The translations under genes and the position numbers were made by a program. This document shows positions 14,246 through 47,309 of a stretch of DNA of 64,000 bases, in pieces. Numbering within the stretch: the stretch's first letter is position 1; each line of letters begins with the position of its first letter. Source of the DNA: a virus (taxonomy: Duplodnaviria > Caudoviricetes); the IMG/VR virus record IMGVR_UViG_2895548450_000001, positions 1 to 64,000 of that record; one strand, written 5' to 3'. The notes under the pieces were generated by a model. That model was not told where the DNA came from and did no database searches. It saw only the letters and a list, made by a program, of their open reading frames with translations.

Positions 14246-15010
14246 TTAATTAATTTGTGTTTGTCTTATACCGTCGATTTCTCGACCCCAAGGACTCCAA
14301 GTGTTTTGGCCGACTTCTTGGGATTCACTATTGAAGAATAGAGTAGACCAAGAATCACGCTTGTTGTCACTAACTTCATCCCAAACAACATTGGTAAAGT
14401 TTCTAATATCCGCCGAGGAACGTCCAACACTTTCTATATTAAATTGAAATAAGTGGCCACCAAAGCGGTGTCGGCCAAAGATCATAGCTACGGGTGTGCC
14501 GGAACGTACAGTGTTGGGATACGAGGTTGCACTATTACTGCTTTCTTCTGAACTATCATTCTCGGGGGTGGGCATTAGTTCTTGGGCTAACCCCCCTACA
14601 ATAAGTGCAAAACCAATTTGAGCTAATACTAAATTTATACTCACCATCCCCGCCGAGGCTAAAGCCGTAAAACCCACCGCTACGGGAGGAAGAAACACCG
14701 CTACAGTGATTAACACTATCCCGACAACAACCTTAACCCAACCGTTAGAACCTCCGCTACCTTGAAAGCCTTTTAATGTCTGTAGGGTTTGTTTACGACG
14801 AAGTACCATAACACCATCTTGCACCGGCTCGTCTAAGTCTAACGTTGAATTTACCCCGTCAACCTCACAAACATAACGTACTTTAGCGGTTAGCGGATTG
14901 AACCCTTCCTGTAACTTTAGGGCTTCAAGCGCTTCTCTATAGTTGGCCGCGGCGGTCTTTACAGTCTTGGCTATTTTATTGCCAAAACCTACTAACTTAA
15001 TCGTTATCAT
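14246..15010 (-). CDS. Tail assembly protein I-like
   Basis: Ubiquitin-like N-terminus, hydrophobic middle, NTVRSGTPVAMIFGR motif; synteny. Confidence 0.8.
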   Translation of the reverse strand: MITIKLVGFGNKIAKTVKTAAANYREALEALKLQEGFNPLTAKVRYVCEVDGVNSTLDLDEPVQDGVMVLRRKQTLQTLKGFQGSGGSNGWVKVVVGIVLITVAVFLPPVAVGFTALASAGMVSINLVLAQIGFALIVGGLAQELMPTPENDSSEESSNSATSYPNTVRSGTPVAMIFGRHRFGGHLFQFNIESVGRSSADIRNFTNVVWDEVSDNKRDSWSTLFFNSESQEVGQNTWSPWGREIDGIRQTQIN

Positions 15011-15332
15011 GTGGGACTACCTCTTCTAATATTACACACTCCGATTTGACTGAAAACTTTACCGATTTGTGCTGGGAAACCACCCAATGATCCCACTCAG
15101 GGAGAGATAGAAAGGTATAGTAATCCGACAAACTAAGATTCGAAAAATCATTAGTGTGTGTATGCCATGACGCAACAGTGTCCGAGTAATACTTCTCAAA
15201 ATCAGACTCCGAGACTTCAAATTCTTCTTCGGGGGATTCAGCAATATTTTCTACTTCAACAACTTCCCCCGACTTGAGAATAAAGCCACAGCGTTCTTTT
15301 TCCGCGTTCCAAAAGTTACTCAACTGTCCCAT
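14997..15332 (-). CDS. JAB/MPN domain tail assembly protein (K N-terminal-like)
   Basis: ERCGFIL...WHTH...SLSD JAMM motif. Confidence 0.85.
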   Translation of the reverse strand: MGQLSNFWNAEKERCGFILKSGEVVEVENIAESPEEEFEVSESDFEKYYSDTVASWHTHTNDFSNLSLSDYYTFLSLPEWDHWVVSQHKSVKFSVKSECVILEEVVPHDND

Positions 15333-15813
15333 TCTTGGCCCCTCTAAGTTTGGCTCTAAGATGAATTGGTAAGCCTTTATGAAGGTTGTGCAACGTCATG
15401 GCCTCCGTGGTTTTCTCAACCTCGGGGTGTCTTACCACTCGGACAACCCTAATTCTCCACTTATCCGTGTAATCAACAATTTCACTCAAGCGGCCCTGTA
15501 AATGGTGGAGTATCTTTTGTCTCCCCACATAGATAGCAACATGATTGACGACTTGACTACCCGCAATACGCATCATTAACACATCCCCAAAACGAACCTT
15601 GTGTGGATTGTTATTTGTATCTTTGAAACCTTCTTTTTCAAATTTACTGGTGAAGAAATCTAAACTGGGGTCTTGTATCCAGTTATCCGGTCTCGCGTAG
15701 TTTGTGATCTCAATCTGGTAACGGGTCTTGTAGAAATCCCTGACCAACGAATAGCAATCCTGTATCCCTTGCTCGTAGTGGTGGTCACAAAAACTATTGA
15801 GTTCTTTAATCAT
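15316..15813 (-). CDS. NlpC/P60 tail assembly protein (K C-terminal-like)
   Basis: DCYSLVRDFY and NHVAIYVG...ILHH catalytic Cys/His motifs. Confidence 0.88.
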   Translation of the reverse strand: MIKELNSFCDHHYEQGIQDCYSLVRDFYKTRYQIEITNYARPDNWIQDPSLDFFTSKFEKEGFKDTNNNPHKVRFGDVLMMRIAGSQVVNHVAIYVGRQKILHHLQGRLSEIVDYTDKWRIRVVRVVRHPEVEKTTEAMTLHNLHKGLPIHLRAKLRGAKNGTVE

Positions 15814-16298
15814 ACAATTACCGTACTAAATTCAGGTTGCACATAGCGTCGAGGGGGGAACTTGGTTTTGTTCCCGTCGGAGAGCTTTCTTAACTGAAGG
15901 GTTAAAATAGAGGCACTAATATTACTGGCGTGAGAAACGTAAAAAACGTGCTTGGACGTTAGCGACCCGCCCTTTTCATGGGGTAGTGCTTTGTATCGAG
16001 TGACAATGGCGTCCTCTAACAGCCCTTGATTTAGATAATAGCTGTAGATACCCCCCTCGTTAGGGAGCGAAAGGCTCGGTCTGGTTTTCTCACCTGAAGA
16101 CTTGTTACCGATACCTGATATTTTAAACGGGGAGTGAGCCCAAGTGACGTCTTTCCAGTCGCGAGTTTCCCTATCCGTTAAGCGGATAATAACCGGTTGC
16201 CCGTCAGGGTCTTCAATAATAAGCTCTAGATAAGTGGTTAAGTCTTCAGGAGTCAGCGAGTGACGTTGGGACTGAATTTCTTGTGAAAGTTCTTTCAT
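15810..16298 (-). CDS. Minor tail protein L-like
   Basis: PFKISG...RPSLSLPN...FPPRRY pattern; synteny between M-like and K-like genes. Confidence 0.7.
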   Translation of the reverse strand: MKELSQEIQSQRHSLTPEDLTTYLELIIEDPDGQPVIIRLTDRETRDWKDVTWAHSPFKISGIGNKSSGEKTRPSLSLPNEGGIYSYYLNQGLLEDAIVTRYKALPHEKGGSLTSKHVFYVSHASNISASILTLQLRKLSDGNKTKFPPRRYVQPEFSTVIV

Positions 16299-16367
16299 CG
16301 TCAATTTCCCTCAATTTTCGCCTAGTATACCGAAAAGAGGAATAGATTGAATATTTTTCAATCGCCC

Positions 16368-16400
16368 AAAAACAGAACACCCCAGCAAGGCTGAGGCGTT
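16368..16400 (-). terminator. Intrinsic terminator of the candidate sRNA
   Basis: AACGCCUCAGC-CUU-GCUGGGGUGUU followed by CUGUUUUU; two G:U pairs form only on the minus strand. Confidence 0.7.
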
Positions 16401-16445
16401 GATTTGGAAATTGACGATAATTAGGAGCCACTTGGACTACTAACC
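16368..16445 (-). ncRNA. Candidate ~78-nt trans-acting antisense sRNA complementary to the shared translation-initiation motif
   Basis: Lies between a TTGACA-17-TAGTAT promoter and a terminator; contains GGCUCCUAAUUAUCGUCAAUUUCCAAAU, the reverse complement of the motif at ~40 gene starts. The 5' end is estimated. Confidence 0.7.
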
Positions 16446-16452
16446 GAGGCCA

Positions 16453-16481
16453 ATACTACGGCCTCACAATTTTATTGTCAA
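16453..16481 (-). promoter_or_regulatory. Near-consensus sigma70 promoter with AT-rich upstream element
   Basis: TTGACA (16481-16476), 17 nt, TAGTAT (16458-16453); almost pure A/T at 16482-16520; inverted repeat GAGGCC-N8-GGCCTC (16446-16465) spans the -10. Confidence 0.8.
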
Positions 16482-16518
16482 TAATATTGTTTAAATTAAT
16501 TAATAAATATTTTATTAA

Positions 16519-16905
16519 TTAAAGTGCTACTTCACGCAACATAACTTTAAACGGTTCAATTGCCCCGTCCCCCCCTGTAATACCTTGGGGTAGCTCAAGT
16601 GGCTGGTCAAACCGTACAACAACATTACCAAATTTATGATGCTGAAAGATAAACTCTTTCCACGTTTCGTGTCGTTGGTAAAACTCATCCAAATGATCAG
16701 CGCTATATCGTCTTTCTAAAGGACTAAGAAGCTGGGGGTTTTCAAAATACTTCATCACCGAATAATTTAAAGTAAATATCCGGCTTATTGGTGCGGTGGG
16801 CTTAGTTACATAATCCCACTGATTCCCCAACGACAAATGGGTGGAACGGTCTCGGTATCGGTGTGATACTTTGTGATAAATAAAATCAAATTGTTCGATA
16901 GACAT
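16519..16905 (-). CDS. Distal tail protein (lambda M-like)
   Basis: Immediately after tape measure; LDEFYQRHETWKEFIF pattern; 128 aa. Confidence 0.7.
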   Translation of the reverse strand: MSIEQFDFIYHKVSHRYRDRSTHLSLGNQWDYVTKPTAPISRIFTLNYSVMKYFENPQLLSPLERRYSADHLDEFYQRHETWKEFIFQHHKFGNVVVRFDQPLELPQGITGGDGAIEPFKVMLREVAL

Positions 16906-19900
16906 TATCTAGTCCTCATTGCTACAGATGCGATTAGTGACGCCAGTTCACCCTCTCTCGCGATATCATCACCAATTACCGCTTTAACATCATTTGGCCC
17001 CATCGGAGGTAACTGCTTCTCACTCACAACATACACATTTACGGTACCTGAATCTTCACTGTTCGTTGCTGCGGCTGCTTGGGCCGCGCTACTTGTCATC
17101 ATTTCTTTATCAGAAACACTATTAGGGTCTGCAGAATTGAGGGCCTTAACAGTCTCTAGACCAATAGCGTCAACGGCAGCTTTACGCAGAACGAATTCCC
17201 CTCGACTTACTTTGGCGTAAGTGGAATCACGGGTAGACATACCACTTGTGATTAATCCCCCAGTCTTATAGCTACCGGCTATTACTGGCCCCCCAGTAAA
17301 CATCCCTCCACCAAAGAAACCACCCATTCCGCCGCCCATTAAACCTAGACCCGAGAACAACGACATAATTAACTGATTAGCTAACGCTCGGGTGGCGATA
17401 TTGGCCATTTCCGTAAGAATACTTACCCCTAAGGCTCTAAACGCATCCTCAGACTCAGCGGCACCCGTTATAATATCTGCGAAGGTCGCTCCAAACGCGT
17501 CTCCCAGGCCCTGGGCTGCGCTTATCGCTTCGTTGGTCATTTGGGTTAACATATCAAAGTTTTCGTAACCCTTGTTAACCTCATCAACGACATAGGCCCC
17601 TGCGTTAGAGAGTTGCGAACCTAACGTTTTCCCGCCTTGGCCCCCATAGTTCTCATCGACCCCTTGTTCTCCTGTCGGAGAATATGACGTTCCATAAATA
17701 GCCGCTTGGGTTCTTCTAAACTCATCACTCTCGTAAACACTCTGGTTTATCCGGCGAACCGTATCCCCCATCTGGTCTCTGAATTCTATTAAGCCCCTAT
17801 CCGCTTCTTTTGTGGCTTGGGATAAATCTTTAAGGTCCCCATCCAGACTAATGTTTTGAGTCTCTAAGTCTTCAACCGACTTACGAGTTTTCGCTTTTGA
17901 ACGGCCATCTGTGAGCGCTTCGTTATCGATAATGGTTGTCTGAAGATATTCAGCAAAGTCCATTAACGATTCTTTCGCTTGCTTAACAGCCTGTTCTTCC
18001 AGCGCGAGAGCTTCTTTCTCAAGTTGTACCGCTTGGCTCTCTAACTCGTTGGCTATCCCTGCAGCACGTTCTCGGGTCTCATCGGTGTAACCGGTATTCG
18101 AAGCAATATTAAGGTAGCGCTGGGAGTCATAACGAATATCCCCTGCGTTGTTTCTAAGCGTCTCAGCGTTTTGTCTCGCTTTAGATAATTGGTTATTTAT
18201 CTCGGCCCGTTCCTCCCCTATTACATCCGAGAGTAAACGCGACAGCTCATCATCATCCCCTAGTAATTTGAAGTCTCTAACATCGAGGTCCTTTTGCTCA
18301 CCAATCGAACGTTCTAAACGGCTTCGCGCAAACGTCTTGGCTTGAATAGTGTCAAACTGTTGATTCCCCAGTGTTACGCGTGCATTTAACTCCCTATCTC
18401 GCTGGGCCACCGATACGGGGGAGTTCCCATCAATAGCCGCAAACAAGGTATCTTGCTCGTTGGCCACGCGCTCACGTTCGAGGTTTATTTCCTTAAGCTT
18501 AGCTTTTACTTCATCGGATTTATCGCGATCTGTAACTTGACGTAGTTGGTCGCGAAGCACATCGATTTCTTTATCTAACTCCGCCAGTCTCGCGGGGTAA
18601 TATAAGTTAGCGTCGGGTCTCGCATCTTTCGCAGCGGATTGTAGTGAACGTTCTAACTTGCCTCGGGCCTCCCCTGCCGCTTGGTAATAACCCTGTTCTT
18701 GCAAGACCAGTCGGGGGTTAGCAACGCCTTCAGCTTCTAATTCAGCTAAAGCGTTCTTCTCGTCTTCAAGTAACCCCTGTATTTGTTCTCGAACCAGTGT
18801 GTTTATATCTTTAAAGGTACCTAGATAATCGCTTGTCTCGTAGCTGGTGTTCTTTTCTGTGAGAGCATTTATTTCCTCACTCGTCTCAGCAATGTCGTTT
18901 AATAGTTCACGACGGTTCTTAAGAACAATCGCCGCGATTCGACGCTCTTCTTTCTTTAACTCAGGGTCTAACGAGTCATATTGCTCTTGGTTCTTCTCAA
19001 CTTGCAATAGAGTATTGGCGCGGTTCAACATTTCCGTAGCAAGGTTATTGATATACTCTTCGGCTTTATCCCTTGCCTCCCCCGATAAACCAAACTGTTC
19101 CATAAGGTTGTCAAGTTCTTGAGGGGATTGATTAAGAATGTTGAATAGCTGGCTTTGTAATTCCTGTGTTTGCGTGCGGGCCTCTTGTGCACGGCCAAAG
19201 GCCCCCGTTTCACTAGGCTTAATATTACGAATTAACTCGTTAATCCTTGCGAGGTCGTCGCCAAAGTTAGGTAGCGCGGTATCTATCAAGCTGCGATAAA
19301 CATTTCCTCGACTCGCGAACCGGCCACGAGAGGTTGCGGTCTTCCCGCTACCTACACTTACGTTAGGATTACCTTCATTCGCCAGAAGCTTACGCTCAGA
19401 TGAATCAAAGAAACCGATTGAAAACAACTCATCTAATTTAGCTTGTGAGTTATCTACGAAGTTATTTCGGTTCTGTGTTTGAAGATAGCCTACCCCGTCT
19501 CGAGTAGCGTCCTCAAACTCTTTCATCTTAGTAATAAGTTTGTCGTAGCTATCTATCGAATCATCGATATACAAGCCTTGTTGACGGAACTCATCATTAA
19601 GTCGACGTATCTCGCGCTGTAAGGATTTGTTATCGGTAAGATCATTTTGCTTTAAGATAAGGGTATCTATTGCGGAACCCACTTTCTTAAGCTGGTCCTC
19701 ATAAACCTTCGTTTCGGAAGAGCCACGGTTTAAAGCGGCTTGCGTGCTATCCACACGGTCGTTTGCACGGGCTCGGCCATCGAGGTACTGATAACCATAA
19801 ACCCCTGCGGTACCTACCGCAGTAGCAAGACCAACCCCAGGTATTGCTCGAGCTGCAAAACCGGCCGCAGTTCCTAAGCCTCTGCTCGAGGCAACCTTAG

Positions 19901-27767: not shown

Positions 27768-28970
27768 TTAGGCCGCAGTATCGAAGATTACGCGAGTATC
27801 ACCGTAAACTAGGCGATAGCCTGAGTTCTCAGTTTTCACATACGTAATTGACTGGTTCTTAATTGCTGTCTCAGACTCAGACAGTACAGAACCCGCTTCG
27901 ATAAGTTCTTCCAGCGTGTCAGCCTTCGAATAACAAATCAGCTTACCGGCTGGGGCTGAGCTTGAAATATGGAAGTTAACACCGCTTAAGAAGTCCATGG
28001 CCAGAGCCACACGAGGACCACCGTTCTCCTGAAGAATTTCAGAGGTAGACTTACCGTTAGGCTGAGTTGGTAAGAACATTAGGAACAGTTCTAACCACAT
28101 ATCGTAGTTACCTACGATAGTATCAACCGGTACACCTTTACGCGCACGCTGGGCCAAGAAGTCAGCCAGAGCAACGTAGTTACCTTTAAGACCTTTAGCC
28201 GCATCCCAGTCTTTATAGCTTGAGGCTGCGACCACTTCTGCCGCTTCGTGAACACCATCACCATTGATCAATAGCGAGGTAGCCATCTTCACTTTGCTGA
28301 TTTCTTTGTTACGCGCAATACGGGCCGCATATGGCGTAAGAATATCTAGGCTCACACGACGTTCGAATTCGTATGAGGTACGGATACCAGAACCATGCTT
28401 GAAGAACTTAACCGACTTATCAGAGCTTTTGATAGTCTGCATCGGAATGTTGGCAAGTTCCGCGATAGGCGAAGTATTTAGCTGGCCTTGGTCGTCAAAA
28501 ATTGCGGTGGTAATAAGCTCGTTACCAGTGATAGTACGTGTCTGTGCCACCATAGGGGCCGTTGATTCGTACATATCTTGGCGCGTATTCCACTGAAGCA
28601 TATCGTCGATAACTTCAGGGAAAAGTGCGCGAGAGCCTGGGCGAGCACTGAAAGTGTCCGCTGCCGCTTGAAGGGTAATACCTTGCTCAAACGCGTTTTT
28701 GAACGGTAGGTTCAACTCTACGATAGCGGCTTGGTAGCCGGTCATAAAGTTACCGTTTTCCAAACGGAAGTTTTTACCCGACTCAGCATCATTTGACGCA
28801 CGAACGTCAACCGCTAAGTTTAGGTAATCACGAACATTAATACCGTATTGTTTTGCTGCTTGAACCAGCTTTACGCCAGCGCGAATTGAATCGTCGCTGT
28901 GTTCACTATCGATACCCGCTAGAACTACTTTAAGCGGGGCTCGTTTGATCTGACTAAGATTTGTTTGCAT
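27768..28970 (-). CDS. Major capsid protein
   Basis: ~400 aa after protease and decoration genes; HK97-like (IAELANIP, KFFKHGSGIRTSYEF, LLINGDG). Confidence 0.88.
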   Translation of the reverse strand: MQTNLSQIKRAPLKVVLAGIDSEHSDDSIRAGVKLVQAAKQYGINVRDYLNLAVDVRASNDAESGKNFRLENGNFMTGYQAAIVELNLPFKNAFEQGITLQAAADTFSARPGSRALFPEVIDDMLQWNTRQDMYESTAPMVAQTRTITGNELITTAIFDDQGQLNTSPIAELANIPMQTIKSSDKSVKFFKHGSGIRTSYEFERRVSLDILTPYAARIARNKEISKVKMATSLLINGDGVHEAAEVVAASSYKDWDAAKGLKGNYVALADFLAQRARKGVPVDTIVGNYDMWLELFLMFLPTQPNGKSTSEILQENGGPRVALAMDFLSGVNFHISSSAPAGKLICYSKADTLEELIEAGSVLSESETAIKNQSITYVKTENSGYRLVYGDTRVIFDTAA

Positions 28971-29012
28971 CGTCAATCTCCAAATTTTTATTTGCGGTGC
29001 GAATCTTCCGAA

Positions 29013-30658: not shown

Positions 30659-32119
30659 TTAAGACTGGTTAGCCTTAGACTTCGCGCTTTTGTCTGAAGC
30701 TCGACTAACCGAACGTCCTTGAGGGTCCGAATTAGGGCTAACTTTCTCAGCGTCTACTTCCATTGCGCCACCCACAAAACCGGTGCCGCTTAACTCAGGA
30801 ACCGCGTCAGGGCGAATACGTCTGTACATTGCAATATGGTAATCGTCGTCTGTAATCAGACCATCACTTAAATCGGTGCGTAAACGATTAGACTTAAGGT
30901 TTAATTGTGCTTCTAATTCTAGCTCAGAACGTAAATCAATATTGGGGAATCTCACAATTACTCGACTTTCTGAACCTTGAAGTCGTAAGGCCATCGTCAA
31001 CATACTGCCTAGAATTTCCCCAATAGGCTCGTTCAAGCTGTCCGCGTTTTTGGCAAAGAGGTTGGCTTCCACCGTCGCGGTATTAACGCCGGATTCCCCG
31101 CGCCCTAGAACGGTAGCCATCGTCTTAAGACCGGCTTGGTTCTGTGCGTTGAGGGTATCGATTACTTCTTGAATCTTTATCCCCGTCGCAGGGTTCTTTT
31201 CATTGAGCATTGACACTTCAGCGCTATCCGTGTGGACCATTGCTTGGTCTGGGCGGAGTGTAGCAAAAGCACTGCCGATATCTTGTCTACGCTGAGAAAT
31301 ATACGTCCTCATCTTTTGAGGGTCAGCTTTAACGTCTGCAGGGGCATTTTTGACTAACACTTCCTCAAGAACCTTAATAGCGATTCTCGGGAAACCCGTA
31401 ACTTGCATGATTCGGTACAGGTCGTTAATTACCTGTTGTCGCGCTGCCATGGTATTTATCGCACTGATAAACGGACTATGGCCATAAGCCTCAACAGGAG
31501 GTTTTCTATACCATGCAACGAAGAAAGACGGGATATCCATTTTAATAGGGTCCCCGCCCCCTTGGTCTTGCCACGGTACCATTTTCCCAGGCTCTTTTTC
31601 TTGCCAGCGAATACTTGCCATATCGATATTGCGAAGTTCCGTTAATTCAAGCTGGTCCCCAAATACGGTTTCACACCCAATACCCCCACGGGCCAATAGC
31701 ATGTAACGAAACTCTTCAGAAAGCTCTCTTAAGGTTTTACGCCTCAGGTAACCCTTGGAATAATCTCGACGGGTCTCGAGCGCTTCAATAAGTTCATTAA
31801 CAATCTTCGCTCCGTCGCGGTCTATCGCCCCGTCAGGGTCTTTTACGACAATATAGGGGACAGAGCTACCCGCTGTCGTTAAGTACGCCCCTAATGCCGC
31901 TGACGCGTCAGGATCGGACTTAACCAATTTGAGAATTATTTCTTGGGAGGTATCCGACGTTCTTGTCGAATAGATATCTTCAAGGTGTTCCCGATAGTCT
32001 GGGAGAGAGAGGACTTCGGTGTTATTTTCTGCGTTATAGGTCGCAGTTTGTGTACTCCCCTTCGGCTTAAACCGATTAGGCACAATTACCTTAAGTTTGC
32101 TGAGTATCGTTCCGGCCAT
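30659..32119 (-). CDS. Portal protein
   Basis: ~486 aa between terminase and protease; YGHSPFISA motif. Confidence 0.85.
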   Translation of the reverse strand: MAGTILSKLKVIVPNRFKPKGSTQTATYNAENNTEVLSLPDYREHLEDIYSTRTSDTSQEIILKLVKSDPDASAALGAYLTTAGSSVPYIVVKDPDGAIDRDGAKIVNELIEALETRRDYSKGYLRRKTLRELSEEFRYMLLARGGIGCETVFGDQLELTELRNIDMASIRWQEKEPGKMVPWQDQGGGDPIKMDIPSFFVAWYRKPPVEAYGHSPFISAINTMAARQQVINDLYRIMQVTGFPRIAIKVLEEVLVKNAPADVKADPQKMRTYISQRRQDIGSAFATLRPDQAMVHTDSAEVSMLNEKNPATGIKIQEVIDTLNAQNQAGLKTMATVLGRGESGVNTATVEANLFAKNADSLNEPIGEILGSMLTMALRLQGSESRVIVRFPNIDLRSELELEAQLNLKSNRLRTDLSDGLITDDDYHIAMYRRIRPDAVPELSGTGFVGGAMEVDAEKVSPNSDPQGRSVSRASDKSAKSKANQS

Positions 32120-32138
32120 CGTCAATTTCCCAAATTAT

Positions 32139-37074: not shown

Positions 37075-37289
37075 ATTCCCCCTGTATCACACTTAAAATG
37101 TGTTCAAAAAACTTTCCGATTCACTTTTACCCGTATACAAAAACACACTTTTATTGTGTTTTTTATACGTATGAAAACGCTTACCTAAACGCTCCTAATT
37201 CATTGTCTTGTTTAATTTACACCCTTGACCGACCACTAAATATTTTATACTTTAGTCGACGTTGACAGCGAACAACGTCTTGTATATGC

Positions 37290-37485
37290 ATAGACACCTT
37301 GCCGCTTATCAACCGAGTGGAGGCTCGACACTATCCACTCCTACAATTTGGAAATTGACGATAAAGCCTGTTCTAATTTTAATGCTCGTCCGCATACCTA
37401 GTTTCAAGCTTATCTAACGACAACGACCTCTGATTACGTTGAACGTCTCAAACCCCGAGTGGCCCAACCCTCGGGGTTTTATTTT
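37290..37485 (+). ncRNA. Candidate decoy/sponge RNA carrying a 19-nt perfect target site for the sRNA
   Basis: Hairpin 37315-37340, site 37346-37364, no SD-led ORF, terminator at 37450-37485. The 5' end is uncertain. Confidence 0.35.
37450..37485 (+). terminator. Intrinsic terminator
   Basis: AAACCCCGAG...CTCGGGGTTT then TATTTT. Confidence 0.75.
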
Positions 37486-37662
37486 ATTACTCGCTTTTTA
37501 TTCCTAAGGTTTAGTTTTGGGTCTAGGTTCTCGGGTCTAGTATCTCGTTTTTTGTGTGGAGTTCTCGGGCCTAGGTTCTAGGGTAGTTAGTATAACCTTC
37601 CAAAATCCCAAAAATTTTTCAGGTGGAGTGAGAGGGCCACCCCACTATATCACCTCGTTTTC

Positions 37663-37692: not shown

Positions 37693-37780
37693 GAATGCAA
37701 CTCGGGACACCTACCACGAAACACGGACCGAGGGGGGAACATTCCCCCACCGACAAATTAACTTTTAAGGATTGACGATT

Positions 37781-38500
37781 ATGACTACTACTACCACTTT
37801 CAACGCTTCAGTGTTTGCATCGGCTCTTGTTACTGCTGATAAAAATGATCTACGTGTGCCAGCCGTTAAAATGGCTATCGCTTGCTATGCCGTAGCACAC
37901 AACATGGAAAAAGGCGCTAACATTGCGCTTTGTTGTGACTTGTATGGCGTGCCAGCTAACCAACGTACAAAAGCCAACCGTGACAGCTCACGCCTATACA
38001 ATCAGGCGAAAGGCTATTGGAAAACGTACGTGAAATTCGTAAATGATAACCGCCAATATCTAACCAAGTTTTTCGACGCTATAAAAACGATTGAGTTAAA
38101 CGGCACATTCGCGCAAATCGGTGACAAGGTATTAAACGCGGATATTTACGGCGAAAATGGCGCTCCTCAAGGCCGCGTTGAATGGCTTAACTTCCTAGGC
38201 GAATACTTGCCTAAGGAAGCGAAAGAAGAAAAGCCTAGCAAGGACGCGAAAAGCGAGCCGGTAAAAGGTAAAGATAAGGAAGGCGGAGCAGCTAAGCGTG
38301 CCGCGGATGATAACGTTACAAGTGCTGTTCAGGCCCTTGTTTCTAAGCTTGAAGATCATACTCAAGCGCTGATCAATCATCAGCTTGAGGCCCTAGACGC
38401 GGCCGGTTTACCTAAGGCACACCGCGCAAAAGTGAGTAAAGCCATGCTCGCACTATCGCTTGAGATTCAAAAGGATCTCGAAAAGCAACTAACCAAGTAA
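37781..38500 (+). CDS. Hypothetical early protein
   Basis: Long ORF with motif-linked ATG and its own terminator. Confidence 0.8.
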   Translation: MTTTTTFNASVFASALVTADKNDLRVPAVKMAIACYAVAHNMEKGANIALCCDLYGVPANQRTKANRDSSRLYNQAKGYWKTYVKFVNDNRQYLTKFFDAIKTIELNGTFAQIGDKVLNADIYGENGAPQGRVEWLNFLGEYLPKEAKEEKPSKDAKSEPVKGKDKEGGAAKRAADDNVTSAVQALVSKLEDHTQALINHQLEALDAAGLPKAHRAKVSKAMLALSLEIQKDLEKQLTK

Positions 38501-38540
38501 GCCCAGCGGGGGGAACATTCCCCCCTCAATTCGAGAAACG

Positions 38541-38584
38541 AAAAACCGATTAGCACGGCTAGTGCTAATCGGTTTTTTCTTTTT
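38541..38584 (+). terminator. Intrinsic terminator
   Basis: AAAAACCGATTAGCAC...GTGCTAATCGGTTTTT then a T run. Confidence 0.85.
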
Positions 38585-38661
38585 CGCAAAGCTATTAAGC
38601 GCGTGCCTACATCATGTGTGTACCCGTGTGGGTGTGTGCTGGTGGATGTGTGTACCAGTGC

Positions 38662-38695
38662 CTAGGCTCTAGGCTCTAGGCTCTAGGGTCTAGGC
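38662..38695. repeat. CTAGGCT heptamer tandem repeat
   Basis: CTAGGCT x3, CTAGGGT, CTAGGC; related degenerate copies at 37521-37584 and 39367-39380. Confidence 0.8.
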
Positions 38696-38807
38696 TGGTG
38701 GATTGTGATAGCAATTCGCGTGAAGGGAATTTGGAGAAACTGGGGGCCGTGACTGTCGCGGCGATTTTAGGGGGGAACATTCTCCCCCAATATGAGGGAA
38801 TAATATT

Positions 38808-39068
38808 ATGAAAATACCAATGCGAATTTTGAGACAGAACAAGGGTTTGAATCTGGGGACCACAGAATATATAAACGACAAGAAAGTTTGGTTCCATAAA
38901 CTTGAGTTGGTAGGTACAACCGCTCAGCTTGAGCGCTGGTGGCGAATGCGCCAGCGTAGACCTAATCCACTTAAAGACTTGGATGAGGTTGTTATGTACA
39001 ACGTTGAGCATGAAGGCGTGCTTGAGTGTGCAGAGGTTCAGGAAATAATTGCTCGTTACGAGCGCTAA
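38808..39068 (+). CDS. Hypothetical protein
   Basis: GAGGG RBS; flanked by two palindromes. Confidence 0.7.
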   Translation: MKIPMRILRQNKGLNLGTTEYINDKKVWFHKLELVGTTAQLERWWRMRQRRPNPLKDLDEVVMYNVEHEGVLECAEVQEIIARYER

Positions 39069-39106
39069 TTAAGGGGGGAACATTCCCCCCAGATACAAGG
39101 AAATTG

Positions 39107-39370
39107 ATGATGATTACACGTTCTGATTTAGCTTTATTTATCGCGTTTATGGTTCACTTTATGTTGCTGGTGGCTGGGTTCACGGTCCTCATTTCGAGTC
39201 CCGAGGTCCTGGGATTGGGGGGCGTTACGTGTTGGGCCAGTATACCGCTCTTTTGTATCTCTATCGTGAGTCTCTACGGCGAAAAACTAGACAAAAGAAG
39301 TAACTTGGCGCGGGTGGTATTTCGCTTCAATTGGTGGAAGCTGGCTTTCGTTCTAAAAAATAGAATCTAG
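39107..39370 (+). CDS. Small membrane protein (2 TM)
   Basis: GGAAATTGATGATG start; two hydrophobic segments. Confidence 0.65.
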   Translation: MMITRSDLALFIAFMVHFMLLVAGFTVLISSPEVLGLGGVTCWASIPLFCISIVSLYGEKLDKRSNLARVVFRFNWWKLAFVLKNRI

Positions 39371-39604
39371 AGTCTAGGCTGGTGGTTTTTGGTTCGAGAA
39401 AAAAGGATAAAAAACTCGAATCGAGGCTTGACAGCGAGGAAATTGGAGCAGGTCCGACTTCGACCCAAGGGCCTCTATCCAAGCTTCTCGCATGAGATTA
39501 TGGGACGATTAAAAAGCGTCTGTAAAGCATTTTAAAAACTCGGGTATTCACACATACCCTAAAAAAGGGGGGAACATTCCCCCCCCAATTACGGGAAATT
39601 GACG

Positions 39605-39913
39605 ATGGAATTTAAAAATGTACGTATTCAATTTGGCTGGAATAAGCCGGTTGTTGTCCTCCAATATGGCACCCTGCAATACGAGATTGGCACGCTAGAA
39701 TTGAAGGGCGTAACACTCATGCAGCTAGGCAGTTTGAACCCAGAACACGTAGCAAAGCATCACCAAATGTTGTTAGTTTGCGAAATGAGCACAACAATAA
39801 GACTGGCAAAAACCGATGTTCCCGAGCCAGTTAATACGTGTTCCCGTAAACTTTTTGATGAAACCGCTCTGGAACAGCCAAAAGTAGCACTCAACACCAA
39901 TTTAAGCGCCTAG
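39605..39913 (+). CDS. Hypothetical protein
   Basis: GGAAATTGACGATG start. Confidence 0.65.
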   Translation: MEFKNVRIQFGWNKPVVVLQYGTLQYEIGTLELKGVTLMQLGSLNPEHVAKHHQMLLVCEMSTTIRLAKTDVPEPVNTCSRKLFDETALEQPKVALNTNLSA

Positions 39914-40369
39914 ATTCAAGCACTTAGATTTTGTGTTCCCATAAACTTTCTTGGCCTTTTTTCGCAAATCGTGAAACGGTAGAATGCGGGTTGTAGCTGT
40001 GCAAATTTTGTACAGTTACGCGTAACCGGCACTGCTGCGAAATATCCACGCAATGGCGTGGTTTACAAGGGCTGAAGACGCAGTGGCAAAAATGTTCCCA
40101 CAAACTTTCGTTATTATATGTACATTTATATACTCAACTGAGAACATTTTTTAAGAAGTATACTTTTAAAAACTTTGCTTTCGTTTTAATTCGTACCTAA
40201 GGTTTATTTACACACAATGTTCTCGTTCCTCCTTGTGACTTGCTGCTAGTCGCAGTGATCGGGCAAACGACCTTTGAGTGACGCGCTGTAACCTTTGCGC
40301 GTTTGGGATTTTGGCTTGGCCCTCTCGTCTCACTGTCGCAACGAGCAACAACCCCTAAAAAACGTGAGC

Positions 40370-40440
40370 CACACCCAAATTGTGTTTTTTGGCCTTAACA
40401 GGCCATTGCAATTGACTCGGGCATTTTGCCCTTGTATAAC
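40370..40440 (+). promoter_or_regulatory. Sigma70-like promoter with upstream CACA-N7-TGTG site
   Basis: TTGACT-17-TATAAC (40412-40440); palindrome at 40370-40384. Confidence 0.6.
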
Positions 40441-40501
40441 TGAAATCCGCCCTTCGGGGTGTTACGGCGTGAGCCGATTAATTAACTAGGAAATTGACGA
40501 T

Positions 40502-40888
40502 ATGACTAAATCCATTCCCCAACCTGTAAACCAGACTGCGCCCTCCCCTCACGAACTCATGCGCCAAACCCAGCGCGAGATTGCTGAAGCTGTCATGAAC
40601 ATGAAAGCCAAGCAAATCGAATGTCTCATTGGCCTGTACAGAAAATCGGATGCCTTGGAAGGTACCGACGACCTAGGCGAAATGTATCGTCGTACTCAAA
40701 TGCTCAGTCAAGAACTCGACCTGGACTTTTCCGTCGTCCAAAAACTCGTCGATTTTGGCTTCAATTGTGGTGTTGAATGCGCGGCCTCTATCGCATCCTC
40801 AGCGGGTGCAATGGAAAAGGTGCTAGGTAAGGACGAATCTTGCGAGAAGTCTCCGTGTAGTGACGCTGCGGCGCGAGAATCGGCATAG
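40502..40888 (+). CDS. Hypothetical protein
   Basis: Motif-linked ATG. Confidence 0.7.
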   Translation: MTKSIPQPVNQTAPSPHELMRQTQREIAEAVMNMKAKQIECLIGLYRKSDALEGTDDLGEMYRRTQMLSQELDLDFSVVQKLVDFGFNCGVECAASIASSAGAMEKVLGKDESCEKSPCSDAAARESA

Positions 40889-40919
40889 TAAACACCAACA
40901 ATTAGTGAGATTGACGATT

Positions 40920-41225
40920 ATGAGTGTAAAAGTGACTAAAAGTTCGAATCTAAATTCGATGCTTATGAAACATTGTGTGCGGGTTATTTCTCTTTTGGAT
41001 GAATTGAAAAAGTTGTGTGATTTACAAGGCACGGTTCATCTTGACGGCGATTATCCGTTGGCTATTACGGGGACGGATAGAACGTGTGTTGGCCCTTTCA
41101 ATGTAAGTGGTGGATGGTTTCAGACAATTATCGCCCGTCGTAAAGCCGAAATTATCGATGAGCTCTTCGATATGGGGCATGATCTTACTTCCTTCGAAGA
41201 GCCTGAGGAAGCGGACGATGAGTAA
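40920..41225 (+). CDS. Hypothetical protein
   Basis: Motif-linked ATG at 40920. Confidence 0.65.
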   Translation: MSVKVTKSSNLNSMLMKHCVRVISLLDELKKLCDLQGTVHLDGDYPLAITGTDRTCVGPFNVSGGWFQTIIARRKAEIIDELFDMGHDLTSFEEPEEADDE

Positions 41226-41712
41226 AAACCTCCCTATTTTTCGCCGGATGATTGCCGTTGCACACACGGCTCGAAACTGTGGTCGTTTGGCTATGACGCT
41301 TGAAGGTGAAGATGAGGGCTCTCGGGCCTCAATTGATAACCTCAAGCCGATAACCAAAGACACGCCGCACACGACAATCGAGGGTTACTGTGTCCGTGAC
41401 GAGAAGATTCGGTCCTTGATGGGCTGGAAGTATACGCACTGGATGTTAATTGAATCGGCGTTTATCTGTGCCTTGGTGGAAGAAGTGAGTATCGCGTTGG
41501 AGGATTTTGAAGCGGGGTCGTTGCTGATTGACTCGCTCTTGGGTGTGAATATCCACATTCGCCGGTATTCGGCCGAAGGTATAGGGATTGACCGCGATAA
41601 AATCAAAAGCTTTGCGTGGTTGTATCTGGGCAGTGAATACCTTGATGATTTTATCAGCTATGCCGATTACCTTCTGGCCATGCTTGAGGTGAGAGCCCAA
41701 GACGCTGCGTAA
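41218..41712 (+). CDS. Hypothetical protein
   Basis: ATG overlapping the upstream stop region. Confidence 0.65.
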   Translation: MSKNLPIFRRMIAVAHTARNCGRLAMTLEGEDEGSRASIDNLKPITKDTPHTTIEGYCVRDEKIRSLMGWKYTHWMLIESAFICALVEEVSIALEDFEAGSLLIDSLLGVNIHIRRYSAEGIGIDRDKIKSFAWLYLGSEYLDDFISYADYLLAMLEVRAQDAA

Positions 41713-41780
41713 GATGCGAAGGGGGAGAATGTTCCCCCCCTGATTTGGTAATTAACTTTTAAAAATTGGAAATTGACGTT

Positions 41781-42269
41781 ATGACTAGACTAACTGATTG
41801 TGGTCCTTACACCCCTACTGAGAAACGCGCTATCACTCGAGCGCTAAACATCATTCGTGAGAAACAGCCTAACTTCTATGGGCGCTCAAAGATAACCAAC
41901 GTTGACGCATGTAAAACCTACTGTGCACTACAACTGGCCGATGGTTCTCGCGAACGTTTTCTTTGTCTGTTCCTAGATTCCCAGCATGGTTTGATTGCCG
42001 GTGAAATTCTGTTTGAAGGCACGATAAACTCGGCCTCGGTTTTCCCTCGTGAAATTATTCGTCGTGTTTTAGAGCTGAATGCTGCGGAGGTAATAATCGC
42101 ACATAACCATCCTTCGGGCCATCCTGAGCCAAGCACAGCGGATATTCGTTTGACACAAGAAATTAAACAGGCGTTGTCGGCTATCGATGTGCCGTTACTA
42201 GACCATATCATCGTAGGCAACGGCCAAGGATGCCCAACCATTTCTCTTTCACAACGAGGTGACTTATGA
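41781..42269 (+). CDS. RadC-like JAB-domain protein (UPF0758)
   Basis: RERFLCLFLD, GTINSASVFPREI, AHNHPSGHPEPSTAD and LLDHIIVG signatures. Confidence 0.93.
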   Translation: MTRLTDCGPYTPTEKRAITRALNIIREKQPNFYGRSKITNVDACKTYCALQLADGSRERFLCLFLDSQHGLIAGEILFEGTINSASVFPREIIRRVLELNAAEVIIAHNHPSGHPEPSTADIRLTQEIKQALSAIDVPLLDHIIVGNGQGCPTISLSQRGDL

Positions 42270-42763
42270 GTACCGGTAATTTTCCACTGTTAGAACTGTT
42301 AATCGAGACCATGGAACAAGTGGTTGCGTCTAACCTAGATTTTCGGATGGATGATTTCTATTTGGATAGGGATACCGCAGACCAAGCTACAGATATTCAC
42401 ACTTGTGGTACGGCAGCGTGTGTTGCTGGGTATGGTGCGGTTAACCCTAAAATTCAGAAATTCTTGGAAGTAGATATGCCCTACTTCCGAGCGGCAGAAA
42501 CGGCTGAGGATATTGCGGACTATTTGTTAGAAGAAATCGGCTATTTAGGCTACTCCGTTTTTGCAAGTAAAGCTTACGAAAGATATCAACATGCCGCTGA
42601 TTATCTACCAGAAACCGACCTTGAGTTTGAGCACTTGCACAAAGATGAGCCCGAGGCCAAGGAAACCCTGAAGTACATGAAGCATGTGCTGGCCTTCAAA
42701 GAGCGTGAGCTTAAGCGCTGGGAGCGTGAGGAAGCGGAAGAGGAAGCGGAAGATGAAAAATGA
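42266..42763 (+). CDS. Hypothetical protein (HTCGTAACVAG family)
   Basis: Paralogous to the N-terminal half of 43980-44876. Confidence 0.75.
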   Translation: MSTGNFPLLELLIETMEQVVASNLDFRMDDFYLDRDTADQATDIHTCGTAACVAGYGAVNPKIQKFLEVDMPYFRAAETAEDIADYLLEEIGYLGYSVFASKAYERYQHAADYLPETDLEFEHLHKDEPEAKETLKYMKHVLAFKERELKRWEREEAEEEAEDEK

Positions 42764-43085
42764 GCATGGAATTGAAATTGAACTAGGTACCGTGAGCCGC
42801 GCTACGCACCGGACTCAGGATTTAATCCCGACGTTTCTGGATGTTGTCCGTCAGTATGCCGACGCGGAGTATACCCAGATAATGGCCGCACCTTTCAGCT
42901 TTGTTCCAGCATGGGTAACCGATGAAGGTGACGACTGCGATTGGTGGGACAGTGAAGAGGCCGGTTACAAGCTTGAAGAACTGTTCGATATTTTAGATAA
43001 CCAAGCCCCCGAAGGATATTATTTTGGGGCTCACGAGGGTGATGGTTCTGATTTTGGCTATTGGCCTCTCCCTGATGAGAACTAA
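42753..43085 (+). CDS. Hypothetical acidic protein
   Basis: Coupled start; APEGYYFGAHEGDGSDFGYW. Confidence 0.7.
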   Translation: MKNEHGIEIELGTVSRATHRTQDLIPTFLDVVRQYADAEYTQIMAAPFSFVPAWVTDEGDDCDWWDSEEAGYKLEELFDILDNQAPEGYYFGAHEGDGSDFGYWPLPDEN

Positions 43086-43132
43086 ACGATAACGAGGGTG
43101 GGAACATTCCCCCCCTCTTTTGGAGATTGACG

Positions 43133-43288
43133 ATGCGCCAAGTGTGCAAAAAGTGTGGTGGCACCATGCTAGGAGACGGGTATAAAACGGTTGAGCACTG
43201 CGAGTTTTCTACCGACCCAGAAATTGACTTTATGGCCCCTGATGAAGGGCCAGTTTATTGTGACTTTAAGGAAATTGACGATGAGTGA
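43133..43288 (+). CDS. 51-aa Cys-containing protein (possible zinc ribbon), not in the ORF track
   Basis: GGAGATTGACGATG start; MRQVCKKCGG...HC...YCDFKEIDDE. Confidence 0.7.
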   Translation: MRQVCKKCGGTMLGDGYKTVEHCEFSTDPEIDFMAPDEGPVYCDFKEIDDE

Positions 43289-43769
43289 TTTAAAAGAATT
43301 CAAAATTGTTCTCGAAGAGAGCGATACGGGCCGACAGCTAGTTTTACCTAACGTCATGGCCAGCGATTATGACGTTGCTGAAGCGTATGGTAACCATGTT
43401 GCGGCGGACCTACCGGTTTCTGACATTGACCGACAACAAGGCTTTGGCATGAGTGAAACGTCGTGGTCTTGTTACCCTGAAGAAGTGAAGCCCGAACCTG
43501 AAAAAATGCGTCGTATGGAGTGGAACACGGGTCGTCACTATGGTCCAGAGGGTCAGATTATTCGAGCAGTTGAATATAAAAACGTTGTAGATGAAACCCT
43601 CACGCTGTCGGGCGTCTTGTTGCAGGATATGACTCGAAAGCTTTGCTATCAGATTGAGGACTGTGCTTTCACCCAAACCGCGATCTTACATCGTTACGAC
43701 TTTGGTGGGCATCGTAACTATTCCACAGCCGAGTTCGAAAAAGCCTGGGCGGAGGCCGTAGACGTATGA
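43281..43769 (+). CDS. Hypothetical protein
   Basis: Motif-linked ATG at 43281. Confidence 0.7.
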   Translation: MSDLKEFKIVLEESDTGRQLVLPNVMASDYDVAEAYGNHVAADLPVSDIDRQQGFGMSETSWSCYPEEVKPEPEKMRRMEWNTGRHYGPEGQIIRAVEYKNVVDETLTLSGVLLQDMTRKLCYQIEDCAFTQTAILHRYDFGGHRNYSTAEFEKAWAEAVDV

Positions 43770-43987
43770 GTGAAGACACCCCGAAGATAAAGCGTCCCAG
43801 AAACAAGACGCTTATTGAAGTTATCACTTACCTTGAGTCGATAAACCTAAATGTTTACGGCCCTGCGCTTTGTTTAGAAACGGGTAAAAAGTCCTTTGGT
43901 TTTATGGACTATTCCCCCGAGAACGTACTTAAGTACCGCAAGTTACTGGAAGCGAGAAAAATTGCTGAGGAAATTGACGATGAATAA
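43766..43987 (+). CDS. Hypothetical protein
   Basis: GGAGG RBS, ATGA overlap. Confidence 0.65.
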   Translation: MSEDTPKIKRPRNKTLIEVITYLESINLNVYGPALCLETGKKSFGFMDYSPENVLKYRKLLEARKIAEEIDDE

Positions 43988-44876
43988 CCAACCACCAAAA
44001 GTAAACCCGCGTTTTCCCCTACTCCGCATGTTAATTGCGACGATGGAGGAAGTCGTTAAGGCTGAGTTGCCTTTGAAAATGACTGTCTACTTTGATAGTC
44101 CTGCGGTGGCTAAGGACGCGAAAGATATTCACACCTGTGGAACTCCGGCTTGTGTCGCTGGCTATGGTGCGGTCACGCCAGAAATTCAGAAATTAGTGGG
44201 TGTAGATACCGAGGATTTTCGAAGCCAAATCGCAGCGGAGCAAGTTTTTTGGGCCTTACACCATGAAATAGGCAATCTTGCGGAGTCAATCGTCGCAGGG
44301 TCACTTTATCTAAGACGCTCGGCAGCAGAAACCTATCTCCCCCCTGAGTCCAAACGTTTCCAGCATCTATTAGTGGAGGAACCTACCGCGCTGGACGCGT
44401 TGGAGTTTATGAAGCATGTGCTGGACCTGTTGTTAAATGGCCGTGTTGGAGTGAATGAAAGAAGACAGCCACACCCTCACAGATACACCTCAGAAGAGAT
44501 TTTGGCGGATAAGGATATTGCGTTCTACAACATCCCCGAAAGAGTCAGTTCCGGTATGCCTATTCACTACATAATAGCGGATGAGGAATGGGGCTGGATG
44601 AACTTCGTTGAAGGTAAGTACAGCATTCACGACTACATCATGAAAAACCTTGAGTGGGTTGACCCTGATGATCCTGAAGCGGAAAACCAAGTGCCGGTTC
44701 TCACTATCACTTGTGCCGATGAATTGAGTCGAGCGCTCGATGCCGATTGTGGAGGGGCGGGTAAAGCCGCGTGCTTGGCGGACGATACCGCGCTACAGGC
44801 TATTTTCTTCTCGCTGTATCAAGAAGACTGGAACGAACGTTTGGAGGACTTTGACGATGCCAAAGAAGAAGAATAA
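43980..44876 (+). CDS. Two-domain hypothetical protein (HTCGTPACVAG domain plus acidic domain)
   Basis: Motif-linked ATG; N-half paralogous to 42266-42763. Confidence 0.75.
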   Translation: MNNQPPKVNPRFPLLRMLIATMEEVVKAELPLKMTVYFDSPAVAKDAKDIHTCGTPACVAGYGAVTPEIQKLVGVDTEDFRSQIAAEQVFWALHHEIGNLAESIVAGSLYLRRSAAETYLPPESKRFQHLLVEEPTALDALEFMKHVLDLLLNGRVGVNERRQPHPHRYTSEEILADKDIAFYNIPERVSSGMPIHYIIADEEWGWMNFVEGKYSIHDYIMKNLEWVDPDDPEAENQVPVLTITCADELSRALDADCGGAGKAACLADDTALQAIFFSLYQEDWNERLEDFDDAKEEE

Positions 44877-45117
44877 AAACGTCCACATGATTGTGTGCCG
44901 TAGGCCGAATTCGGAGGAATTTAGTTTCTGGCCTCCGAAGATATTTCATGGTCGCGTTGAAGCTATTGCTGAGTTCGACAGCACGTTTATTAAGTGTGAT
45001 TCCTTTGAGGAAACGGGGAGAAAAGAATACTGCGACCAAACAGGCCAGTTATTGTTTTTTGTAACGTCGGCGGGTTTCCGCTGGCAATTGTATTTAGACC
45101 TAGAACCTAACGATTAA
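44857..45117 (+). CDS. Hypothetical protein
   Basis: GGAGGACTTTGACGATG start. Confidence 0.6.
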   Translation: MPKKKNKNVHMIVCRRPNSEEFSFWPPKIFHGRVEAIAEFDSTFIKCDSFEETGRKEYCDQTGQLLFFVTSAGFRWQLYLDLEPND

Positions 45118-45140
45118 AATTGACGATAAGGAGAAAAGCC

Positions 45141-45368
45141 GTGAGTAAGATTGGATTAATGACCGCTATTGTGGCGGGTATGGGGGCCTCGGTCTCTGGG
45201 GCGTGGGGTGAGAAAGTAAAAGCTTCACACCTCGAGTCTATCAACCTAGCTAAGAAGTACGCGCCGAAGGTCGACCACTTGGGACGAAAGAAGCCTAAAG
45301 GTAGCGCTGCGGTCCAGCGTCGTGAAGCGAAAAAGCGAAAAGCGCTTCGAGCGCGTTCGAAGAAATAG
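45141..45368 (+). CDS. Small basic protein with hydrophobic N-terminus
   Basis: AAGGAG RBS, GTG start; K/R-rich tail. Confidence 0.6.
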   Translation: MSKIGLMTAIVAGMGASVSGAWGEKVKASHLESINLAKKYAPKVDHLGRKKPKGSAAVQRREAKKRKALRARSKK

Positions 45369-45377
45369 GGGTTTTTG

Positions 45378-45563: not shown

Positions 45564-45610
45564 GGGGGAATGTTCTCCCCCCTTTGGAATTAACTTTTTG
45601 GAGATTGACG

Positions 45611-45796: not shown

Positions 45797-45826
45797 AAAA
45801 TTAACTCTTAAATTTGGAAATTGACG

Positions 45827-47301: not shown

Positions 47302-47309
47302 GGAAATTG

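Follow-up and report, generated by a model that had tools for sequence, protein, structure and literature searches.

A conserved tail-operon gap in a provirus, predicted to encode an antisense small RNA that mirrors a tag on the phage's own translation starts

Amongst phage regulators that reach their targets through short sequences, T4 RegA is a protein that silences many phage genes via a short, repeated and asymmetric site, and the P4 CI RNA acts on one or few targets. The locus considered here is an intergenic gap in a 64,000-nt stretch of phage DNA (hereafter the window), corresponding to positions 1 to 64,000 of provirus record IMGVR_UViG_2895548450_000001 (90,777 bp; labelled G000). The gap (16305-16518) sits between two tail genes, encoding proteins of 128 and 162 aa, and its minus strand carries a predicted RNA of ~78 nt whose unpaired centre (the seed) is the reverse complement of a tag present at the starts of some 35 genes of the same phage. 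In our preferred reading, to which we assign a probability of roughly 0.55, the gap encodes a trans-acting antisense small RNA that masks tagged translation starts and has a role in the lysogen and in immunity.

A similar arrangement of sites has been described in Cluster K mycobacteriophages as start-associated sequences (SAS), for which the authors left open whether an RNA or a protein is the reader (Pope et al. 2011, PMC3203893); each K1 genome also has a single copy in reverse, for which they gave no explanation. In common with SAS as presented there, the tag described below is asymmetric, private and in sense orientation, holds the Shine-Dalgarno core and lies a few bases from many start codons; likewise, a single reverse copy is located away from any gene start, here one per genome in four genomes. 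The two nevertheless differ in host phylum and phage family, in sequence (the Cluster K consensus in that text is GGGATAGGAGCCC) and in distribution, as SAS is confined to the non-structural half of the genome, whereas the tag is found on both arms. The resemblance is one of logic, not of descent. No proposal of an antisense RNA for SAS was found in the papers searched. In Mycobacterium phage Anaya, the 40.8 kb examined, at the right-hand end, harbour 16 forward SAS copies and one reverse copy, the latter (L188 39871-39883; 59870-59882 of the record) being situated in a 385-bp gene-less gap after a terminator, with the mirror in the loop of a GCGCGG/CCGCGC hairpin. This gap is conserved in 182 Cluster K records, and is unannotated in most of the matches listed.

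Other described systems share single features with the locus. The L5 stoperators, as summarised in the same mycobacteriophage paper (PMC3203893), are short, asymmetric sites repeated genome-wide, through which one regulator silences many genes; unlike the tag, which is phased with start codons, they are read by a protein, act on transcription and lack such phasing. The c4 RNA of P1/P7 is a phage RNA that blocks translation around a ribosome-binding site and sets immunity specificity among relatives, but according to a review (PMC12197685) it acts on one operon (ant), as opposed to tens of genes. That review also covers STnc6030 of Salmonella prophage BTP1, a small RNA from the structural region that excludes superinfecting kin by base pairing and leaves induction unhindered; STnc6030 is, however, cis-encoded and antisense to one tail-spike region, whereas the gap RNA is proposed to act in trans on a shared tag (PMC12197685). 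Within bacterial genomes, RocR of Legionella pneumophila is a trans-acting small RNA that pairs with a sequence shared by the 5' regions of several messages, its terminator hairpin being gripped by the FinO-domain protein RocC (PMC7973641, PMC9674577). RocR is chromosomal and addresses a handful of competence genes, whilst here the predicted RNA, a candidate chaperone gene and ~35 putative targets reside in one phage, and the tag is at the ribosome-binding site itself. As in the FinO/ProQ-dependent systems FinP/FinO and RocR/RocC, a FinO/ProQ-domain protein is encoded with the RNA, which ends in a predicted terminator hairpin with a U tail. The gap RNA would belong with the multi-target antisense small RNAs, which are a known kind; what would be new is that its targets are marked by a tag private to the phage, carried by a third of the phage's ribosome-binding sites. 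The literature searched yielded no description of a phage RNA directed against a start tag spread over the whole genome.

Anatomy and conservation of the predicted gap RNA

Read along the minus strand, the gap contains a TTGACA-17-TAGTAT promoter, the 78-nt RNA, an inverted repeat, a possible second promoter and the tagged start of the 162-aa gene. The parts of the RNA gene itself are as follows.

16453 to 16481, minus strand: sigma-70-type promoter (TTGACA, 17 nt, TAGTAT), scoring 10/12 in a consensus scan
16368 to 16445, minus strand: predicted small RNA of ~78 nt, with its start inferred 7 nt past the -10 hexamer and its end in a U run
16419 to 16445, minus strand: 5' hairpin (RNA nt 1-27) of 10 pairs, the 3' arm of which (CUCCUAAUU) mirrors the extension of the class-II tags defined below
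16401 to 16418, minus strand: seed AUCGUCAAUUUCCAAAUC (RNA nt 28-45), the mirror of GAUUUGGAAAUUGACGAU, unpaired in both the minimum free energy (MFE) and centroid structures
16368 to 16400, minus strand: intrinsic terminator with an 11-bp stem, a CUU loop and a U tail; the scan places the hairpin at 16400..16376 with tail CTGTTTTTGG

Trans-acting small RNAs of bacteria are commonly built in this way, as a succession of hairpin, unpaired seed and terminator with U tail. At 16402-16429 the plus strand has the letters ATTTGGAAATTGACGATAATTAGGAGCC, and the unpaired stretch of 18 nt is the reverse complement of the class-I tag. Folding differs between the strands, with an energy of -22.6 kcal/mol (z -3.75) for the minus strand vs -15.2 kcal/mol (z -1.27) for the plus strand, and both the terminator and the 5' hairpin contain G:U pairs that would give A.C on the other strand. 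An initial annotation, made from the letters of the window, had proposed the promoter, a terminator with G:U pairs restricted to this strand, the sequence of the RNA and the mirroring of the start motif at 16402-16429. Each of these was borne out: the promoter at 16481..16453 by the consensus scan, the terminator at minus-strand 16400..16376, the RNA as the exact minus-strand sequence of 16368-16445, and the mirror from the plus-strand letters. Searches of Rfam returned no family at gathering score for the whole window (c4 included), and only four weak, unrelated matches for the gap at E-values up to 10.

Relatives were gathered by protein and pattern searches of IMG/VR and metagenome contigs; a 17-mer seed pattern fell, among the matches listed, mostly on an unrelated conserved coding sequence in IMG/VR, and a longer pattern was used instead. 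The 35 copies fetched, many of which are the same contigs twice, collapse to eight distinct versions of promoter plus RNA, and to six distinct RNA bodies. The eight promoters have TTGACA or TTGACC at -35, TAGTAT, TAATAT or TAATCT at -10, and a spacing of 16-17 nt. In the L025 and L026 lineages the spacer can no longer be aligned, though the hexamers and their spacing are kept, a pattern that would be expected of a working promoter. Between G002, one of the related genomes, and the window, the RNA is identical at 66/80 positions (82.5%) and the 69 nt between terminator and next start at 56/70 (80%), far above the third codon positions of the flanking genes, where identity is 49/129 and 56/163 (34-38%) and thus near saturation; the gap is therefore under strong purifying selection.

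At the level of structure, all pairs of both helices (21/21) form in each of the six distinct RNA sequences, as opposed to at most 51% of cells in slid controls. Changes within the 5' hairpin are limited to U:G>C:G and G:C>G:U, and those within the terminator to one compensatory pair (C:G > U:G > U:A), one U:G>C:G and a loop indel, whilst the seed displays only two variable positions. The architecture is identical in four RNA variants, with z between -4.7 and -4.9. Amongst more distant relatives there is no gap, and hence no unit, in Achromobacter phage JWF (where gp021 and gp022 overlap), L028 and L181-L184. For seven loci at <=37% identity, inspection of five (L181-L185) revealed no mirror unit, with L185 left ambiguous.

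It is highly improbable that this copy is a relic or a product of chance, i.e. the functionless stump of a lost plus-strand gene start. Such an origin would fit the plus strand at 16420-16431, where five of the six versions have the tag followed by AGGAG and an open reading frame of three codons (TTG, ATG or GTG, two codons, TAA). Conservation is, however, far above that of neutral sites, no conserved plus-strand promoter is found upstream, and a start codon is to be expected opposite an RNA that mirrors the AUG of its targets. As L025 has GGG in place of the start codon, the mini-frame was rejected as a coding sequence and is read as a by-product of the RNA mirroring the target start region.

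The start tag and its pairing with the seed

The private tag found on gene starts is GGAAATTGACGAT(G). Class-I sites were defined by at most two mismatches to GGA[AG]AT[TC]GACGAT together with a reading frame of 40 codons or more whose ATG sits at offset 7, 9 or 10, a rule that yields 35 sites in the 90.8-kb provirus record, 28 of them in the window. Class-II sites (ATTGACGATA) have their own Shine-Dalgarno sequence and start codon 10-20 nt downstream, and number seven in the window, at 366, 1799, 14234, 33941, 45119, 55437 and 58780. Copies of ATTGACGAT with at most one mismatch total 57 in the window, vs a mean of 14.27 and a maximum of 24 in 100 shuffles. With the exception of the gap copy, the tag is always in sense orientation relative to local genes, and of 41 exact core copies in the 90,777-bp record the gap copy is the only one with no same-strand open reading frame at or beside it. 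In 35/35 class-I sites the start codon is separated from the core by one of the three offsets (7, 9 or 10) that the selection rule admits; the core is retained where the ATG shifts by 2 or 3 bases, and the tag is therefore more than a spacer of fixed length. Tagged genes span the lysis, virion, early and replication modules, and include both early and late genes. Genes that overlap or closely trail a preceding gene are mostly untagged, with an ordinary Shine-Dalgarno sequence. The estimate of ~40 target genes in the initial annotation was thus about right, its statement that the gap holds the sole antisense copy stands for the whole record (1/41), and the letters of the four class-II sites that it named are as given there.

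Three class-I targets serve as examples of the pairing predicted for the seed.

28968 to 28985, minus strand: start of the capsid gene (TTTGGAGATTGACGATG), duplex with the seed -24.5 kcal/mol
32117 to 32134, minus strand: start of the portal gene, duplex with the seed -20.9 kcal/mol
45812 to 45829, plus strand: class-I target in the early arm (AATTTGGAAATTGACGATG), duplex with the seed -24.4 kcal/mol

Over all 35 class-I sites, duplex energies range from -15.8 to -24.9 kcal/mol, and the predicted duplex runs from the Shine-Dalgarno sequence across the spacer into the start codon, of which it covers the first bases. Using the 30-nt seed region, duplexes of -20 kcal/mol or better are obtained for 26 of the 108 open reading frame starts in G000, vs 3 of 243 internal sense windows and none of the 108 starts when the seed is reversed. 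The invariant part of the seed, CCAAAU, matches the AUUUGG consensus of many tags, not the start of the neighbouring gene. The 35 sites show 17 departures within the core (-4..+8), and 11 of these are A>G or C>T. The earlier statement that variants keep G:U pairing is therefore true, but weak as support, since 7 of the 11 are GGAA>GGAG, a change that also strengthens the Shine-Dalgarno sequence.

A check named in the initial annotation, a search of related phages for co-variation of seed and start motif, gave a positive outcome, as the two change together in three lineages. In Pseudoalteromonas phage KB12-38, gene order is the same and the gap measures 167 nt, with TTGACT-17-TACTAT and a 13-bp terminator on the tail-gene strand. 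The tag at its gene starts is AATT(T/A)GAGGATTGAC(A/T)nnATG, i.e. GGATTGAC(A/T)nnATG; the syntenic RNA carries UGUCAAUCC, and its unpaired stretch UGUCAAUCCAAAUAGU mirrors the tag of KB12-38 itself. The hairpins of this RNA are unrelated in sequence to those of the window RNA, although the fold is alike, and its seed finds its best match on the other arm (record position 39408). No close relatives of KB12-38 were found in IMG/VR.

The second change concerns a single base. G pairs with both C and U, whereas A pairs with U only. The seeds of G001 and G002 have G in place of the window's A, and the tag position facing this base is C or T in a ratio of 15:17 in G001 and 14:14 in G002, as against T in 35/35 sites of G000. 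About half of the tags in these two genomes are accordingly ATCGACGAT and half ATTGACGAT, the C form being concentrated in the structural arm; either a mosaic origin of the two arms or an escape from A-type seeds could account for this.

As a measure of specificity, those starts were counted at which the seeds of G000, G001 and KB12-38, in that order, give duplexes of -18 kcal/mol or better. These number 27, 26 and 2 of 108 for the starts of G000, 19, 31 and 1 of 102 for those of G001, and 1, 2 and 11 of 91 for those of KB12-38; at a cut-off of -14 the latter become 5, 7 and 33 of 91. Furthermore, each of the four genomes possesses a single core copy with no same-strand gene (1/41, 1/40, 1/36 and 1/34), which in every case is the syntenic gap copy. 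The case for an RNA rests on a conjunction: a conserved promoter and terminator on the mirror strand, strand-specific G:U pairs, and a mirror located in the unpaired centre of the RNA in two lineages with unrelated hairpins.

Proposed mechanism, candidate partners and alternatives

From these features we infer the following course of expression, repression and biological role. The RNA would be produced from its own sigma-70-type promoter and stopped at its own terminator. Its 18-nt unpaired centre would pair with the tag, (AAUU)UGGARAUUGACGAU(G), over the Shine-Dalgarno sequence, spacer and start codon of about 35 genes, hiding the ribosome-binding site, such that translation of the tagged genes would fall together; the long duplex may also attract RNase III. 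Because the layout is moron-like, with a promoter and terminator of its own inside a late operon, it is in the lysogen that the RNA is likely to be expressed; leaky lytic messages, as well as the messages of incoming kin, would thereby be silenced. The seed/tag pair would set specificity, and phages with another tag, such as KB12-38, would be hetero-immune.

Two candidate partners are encoded by the phage. An open reading frame of 168 aa with a FinO/ProQ domain (PF04352, 47.1 bits vs a cut-off of 27) is located at 75667-76173 of G000, outside the window (L168 1366-1872), in the replication arm, and is present in three of the four genomes (G000, G001 and KB12-38). FinO-domain proteins grip the terminator hairpins of small RNAs and promote pairing (PMC9977716, PMC9674577); the phage protein may likewise load or stabilise the gap RNA via its terminator hairpin. 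The start of the FinO/ProQ gene itself carries an off-type tag, AAATTGACGAG. The second candidate is a unit devoid of genes.

37216 to 37490, plus strand: gene-less unit after the primase gene, with a promoter-like site, a perfect 19-nt target (37346-37364) and a terminator

This unit is kept in at least four window-type contigs, and its syntenic counterpart in G002 has a promoter, a C-type copy of the tag and a different terminator, the remainder having diverged. Speculatively, its early transcript is a candidate decoy, which through the perfect target may titrate the RNA and thereby free tagged messages during lytic growth.

That the RNA does pair with the tags, but to another end, is improbable: the outcome would be guided processing, an early-to-late timing that involves the FinO/ProQ protein, or an action mainly on host messages. 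Location of the FinO/ProQ gene in the replication arm, expressed in lytic growth, would suit such an outcome, as would the presence of the tag on early and late genes alike; nothing specific speaks against it, save that a duplex over Shine-Dalgarno sequence and start codon represses translation in known cases.

Several observations weigh against repression in trans by the gap RNA. The promoter of the L026 lineage (TAATCT) fails the scan criteria, and covariation within the structure is thin, being drawn from six sequences of 93% identity with a shuffle control that equals the observed score in 85/500. Once the GGAG variant is subtracted, the wobble asymmetry in G000 amounts to four tolerated vs one untolerated transition. 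G002, whose record has an estimated completeness of 81%, yielded no FinO/ProQ gene, and lytic escape from a constitutive repressor finds no explanation in this reading. Two further observations, concerning the folding of read-through transcripts and the meaning of the covariation, bear directly on alternatives that the initial annotation had overlooked: pairing in cis, and a site read by protein. What survives of its interpretation is a conserved minus-strand RNA gene with its own promoter and terminator, whose unpaired centre mirrors the tag and covaries with it.

With regard to the first, the partner of the seed in cis is the start of the adjacent gene.

16296 to 16309, minus strand: GGAAATTGACGATG, the tagged start of the gene for the 162-aa minor tail protein, with which the seed pairs in cis in the fold of the read-through RNA

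In the MFE fold of the read-through RNA (minus strand, 16270-16445; -57.3 kcal/mol, z -5.55) the seed pairs with this start, and the read-through fold of KB12-38 likewise pairs seed and next start (-46.3, z -5.12); a local role is therefore possible. A purely cis role is the strongest rival to the trans-acting RNA, albeit an unlikely one. The mirror would then be an anti-ribosome-binding site which, in RNA of the tail operon or in read-through from the gap promoter, pairs back onto the 162-aa gene's tagged start and keeps translation of that gene low, all other matches being a by-product of the shared tag. Besides the two folds, this is favoured by the neighbour's tag following the change of lineage (ATCGACGATG in L026). 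However, neither a dedicated promoter just upstream nor a terminator that separates the partners would be required by a hairpin acting in cis, the invariant CCAAAU is without a partner in the neighbour's start in any lineage, and in KB12-38 that start is a poorer match (a bulge plus a mismatch) than the site on the other arm. Roles in cis and in trans may also coexist, in which case cis pairing would stop read-through from the gap promoter from expressing tail genes.

As for the second, covariation alone cannot separate an antisense RNA from an additional copy of a protein-read site and is not decisive, since an inverted DNA copy tracks the sense copies under a protein reader, or under recombination, as well. 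The A>G / T>C case favours RNA pairing by only about two to one. It is distinctly unlikely that a protein is the reader, with the tag as a stoperator-like DNA site for a repressor or as an RNA site for a RegA-like repressor of translation, the gap copy as an extra site, and the RNA-like features as the end of one tail operon and the beginning of the next. The tag being asymmetric, always sense and on both arms is reminiscent of the L5 stoperators as outlined in PMC3203893, and both the covariation and the T/C mixture in G001 and G002 fit an altered protein tolerance equally well. Conversely, a fixed phase relative to the start codon (35/35 sites have offset 7, 9 or 10, as the selection rule requires) suggests action at the level of RNA, and a protein reader would provide no reason for the sole reverse copy to occupy the unpaired centre in two lineages with unrelated hairpins, nor for the strand-specific G:U pairs.

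If repression in trans by the gap RNA is correct, a single RNA of ~78 nt governs translation of a third of the phage genome via a self-written tag on ribosome-binding sites. Lysogeny control and immunity would thereby gain an RNA layer larger in scale than any so far described in a phage, given that P1 c4, P4 CI and STnc6030 have one or few targets. Such a system would account for the conserved spacer between Shine-Dalgarno sequence and start codon in such phages, as well as giving phage-borne FinO/ProQ genes a function. It would also offer a testable hypothesis for the 15-year-old puzzle of mycobacteriophage SAS, and tag/seed pairs could be used as orthogonal translational switches. Bench tests are feasible, as KB12-38 and a Pseudoalteromonas host are both cultured. 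More tentatively, and with the balance of probability tilted against it, one may conceive of a general form of phage self-governance, in which a private tag on ribosome-binding sites is read by one mirror RNA, here accompanied by the phage's own FinO/ProQ chaperone and early decoy. The seed/tag pair would then represent a drifting immunity specificity, with GGAAATTGACGAT in one lineage, a T>C form read by a wobble-tolerant G seed in another, and GGATTGAC in KB12-38; Cluster K SAS and its reverse copy would be explained in the same manner.

Phage family, genome layout and further elements

The closest cultured relative of the window phage is KB12-38, with a portal identity of 59.8%; remoter ones comprise Achromobacter phages JWF and 2-1, Xylophilus phage Lumi, Caulobacter phage Seuss and Acinetobacter phages. 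As KB12-38 encodes an integrase and an excisionase, and TARA contigs are found among the relatives, the family is taken to be marine and temperate. Those contigs and the nearest cultured phage further suggest a marine, Pseudoalteromonas-like host. Species-representative genomes gave no match by protein alignment or by RNA pattern, a near-identity DNA search of 15000-19000 against GenBank phages was likewise without a match, and a search of the window for tRNA and tmRNA genes found none.

Minus-strand genes span positions 1 to 33983 and make up the lysis, tail, head and terminase modules, whilst genes from 34019 onward are on the plus strand, interrupted by one small minus-strand island (54120-55497). 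Genes of the tail region are arranged in the manner of lambda: a 1996-aa tape measure, the 128-aa protein (phrog_34212), the gap, the 162-aa protein, and then minor tail, tail-assembly and J-like proteins. One class-II copy (55429-55437, minus strand) is situated inside the longest-frame call of a 122-aa open reading frame (55129-55497), the first of the sole minus-strand island in the right arm.

Three other assignments were considered and set aside. The tag is not a T7-type promoter, as the 832-aa early protein is a primase and not an RNA polymerase; its identity as a -35/-10 promoter or an extended Shine-Dalgarno sequence was dropped by eye, there being no conserved partner element. A GAGGCC/GGCCTC hairpin viewed as a plus-strand terminator was also dropped, as it is not conserved and falls in the promoter spacer and the first bases past the -10 hexamer.

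Downstream of the RNA, the gap harbours one further element.

16345 to 16363, no strand assigned: inverted repeat GATTGAA-N5-TTCAATC, between the RNA terminator and the possible second promoter (TTCAAT-16-TATACT) of the next gene

Its core, TTGAA-N5-TTCAA, is present in every lineage with a window-type RNA, and the repeat could be an operator or a hairpin next to the second promoter. Finally, at several sites in the early arm (37730-53190), G-rich/C-rich palindromes (GGGGGGAACATTCCCCCC and variants) are followed by AATTAACTT and then by the tag, forming composite intergenic modules that look like terminator or boundary cassettes.

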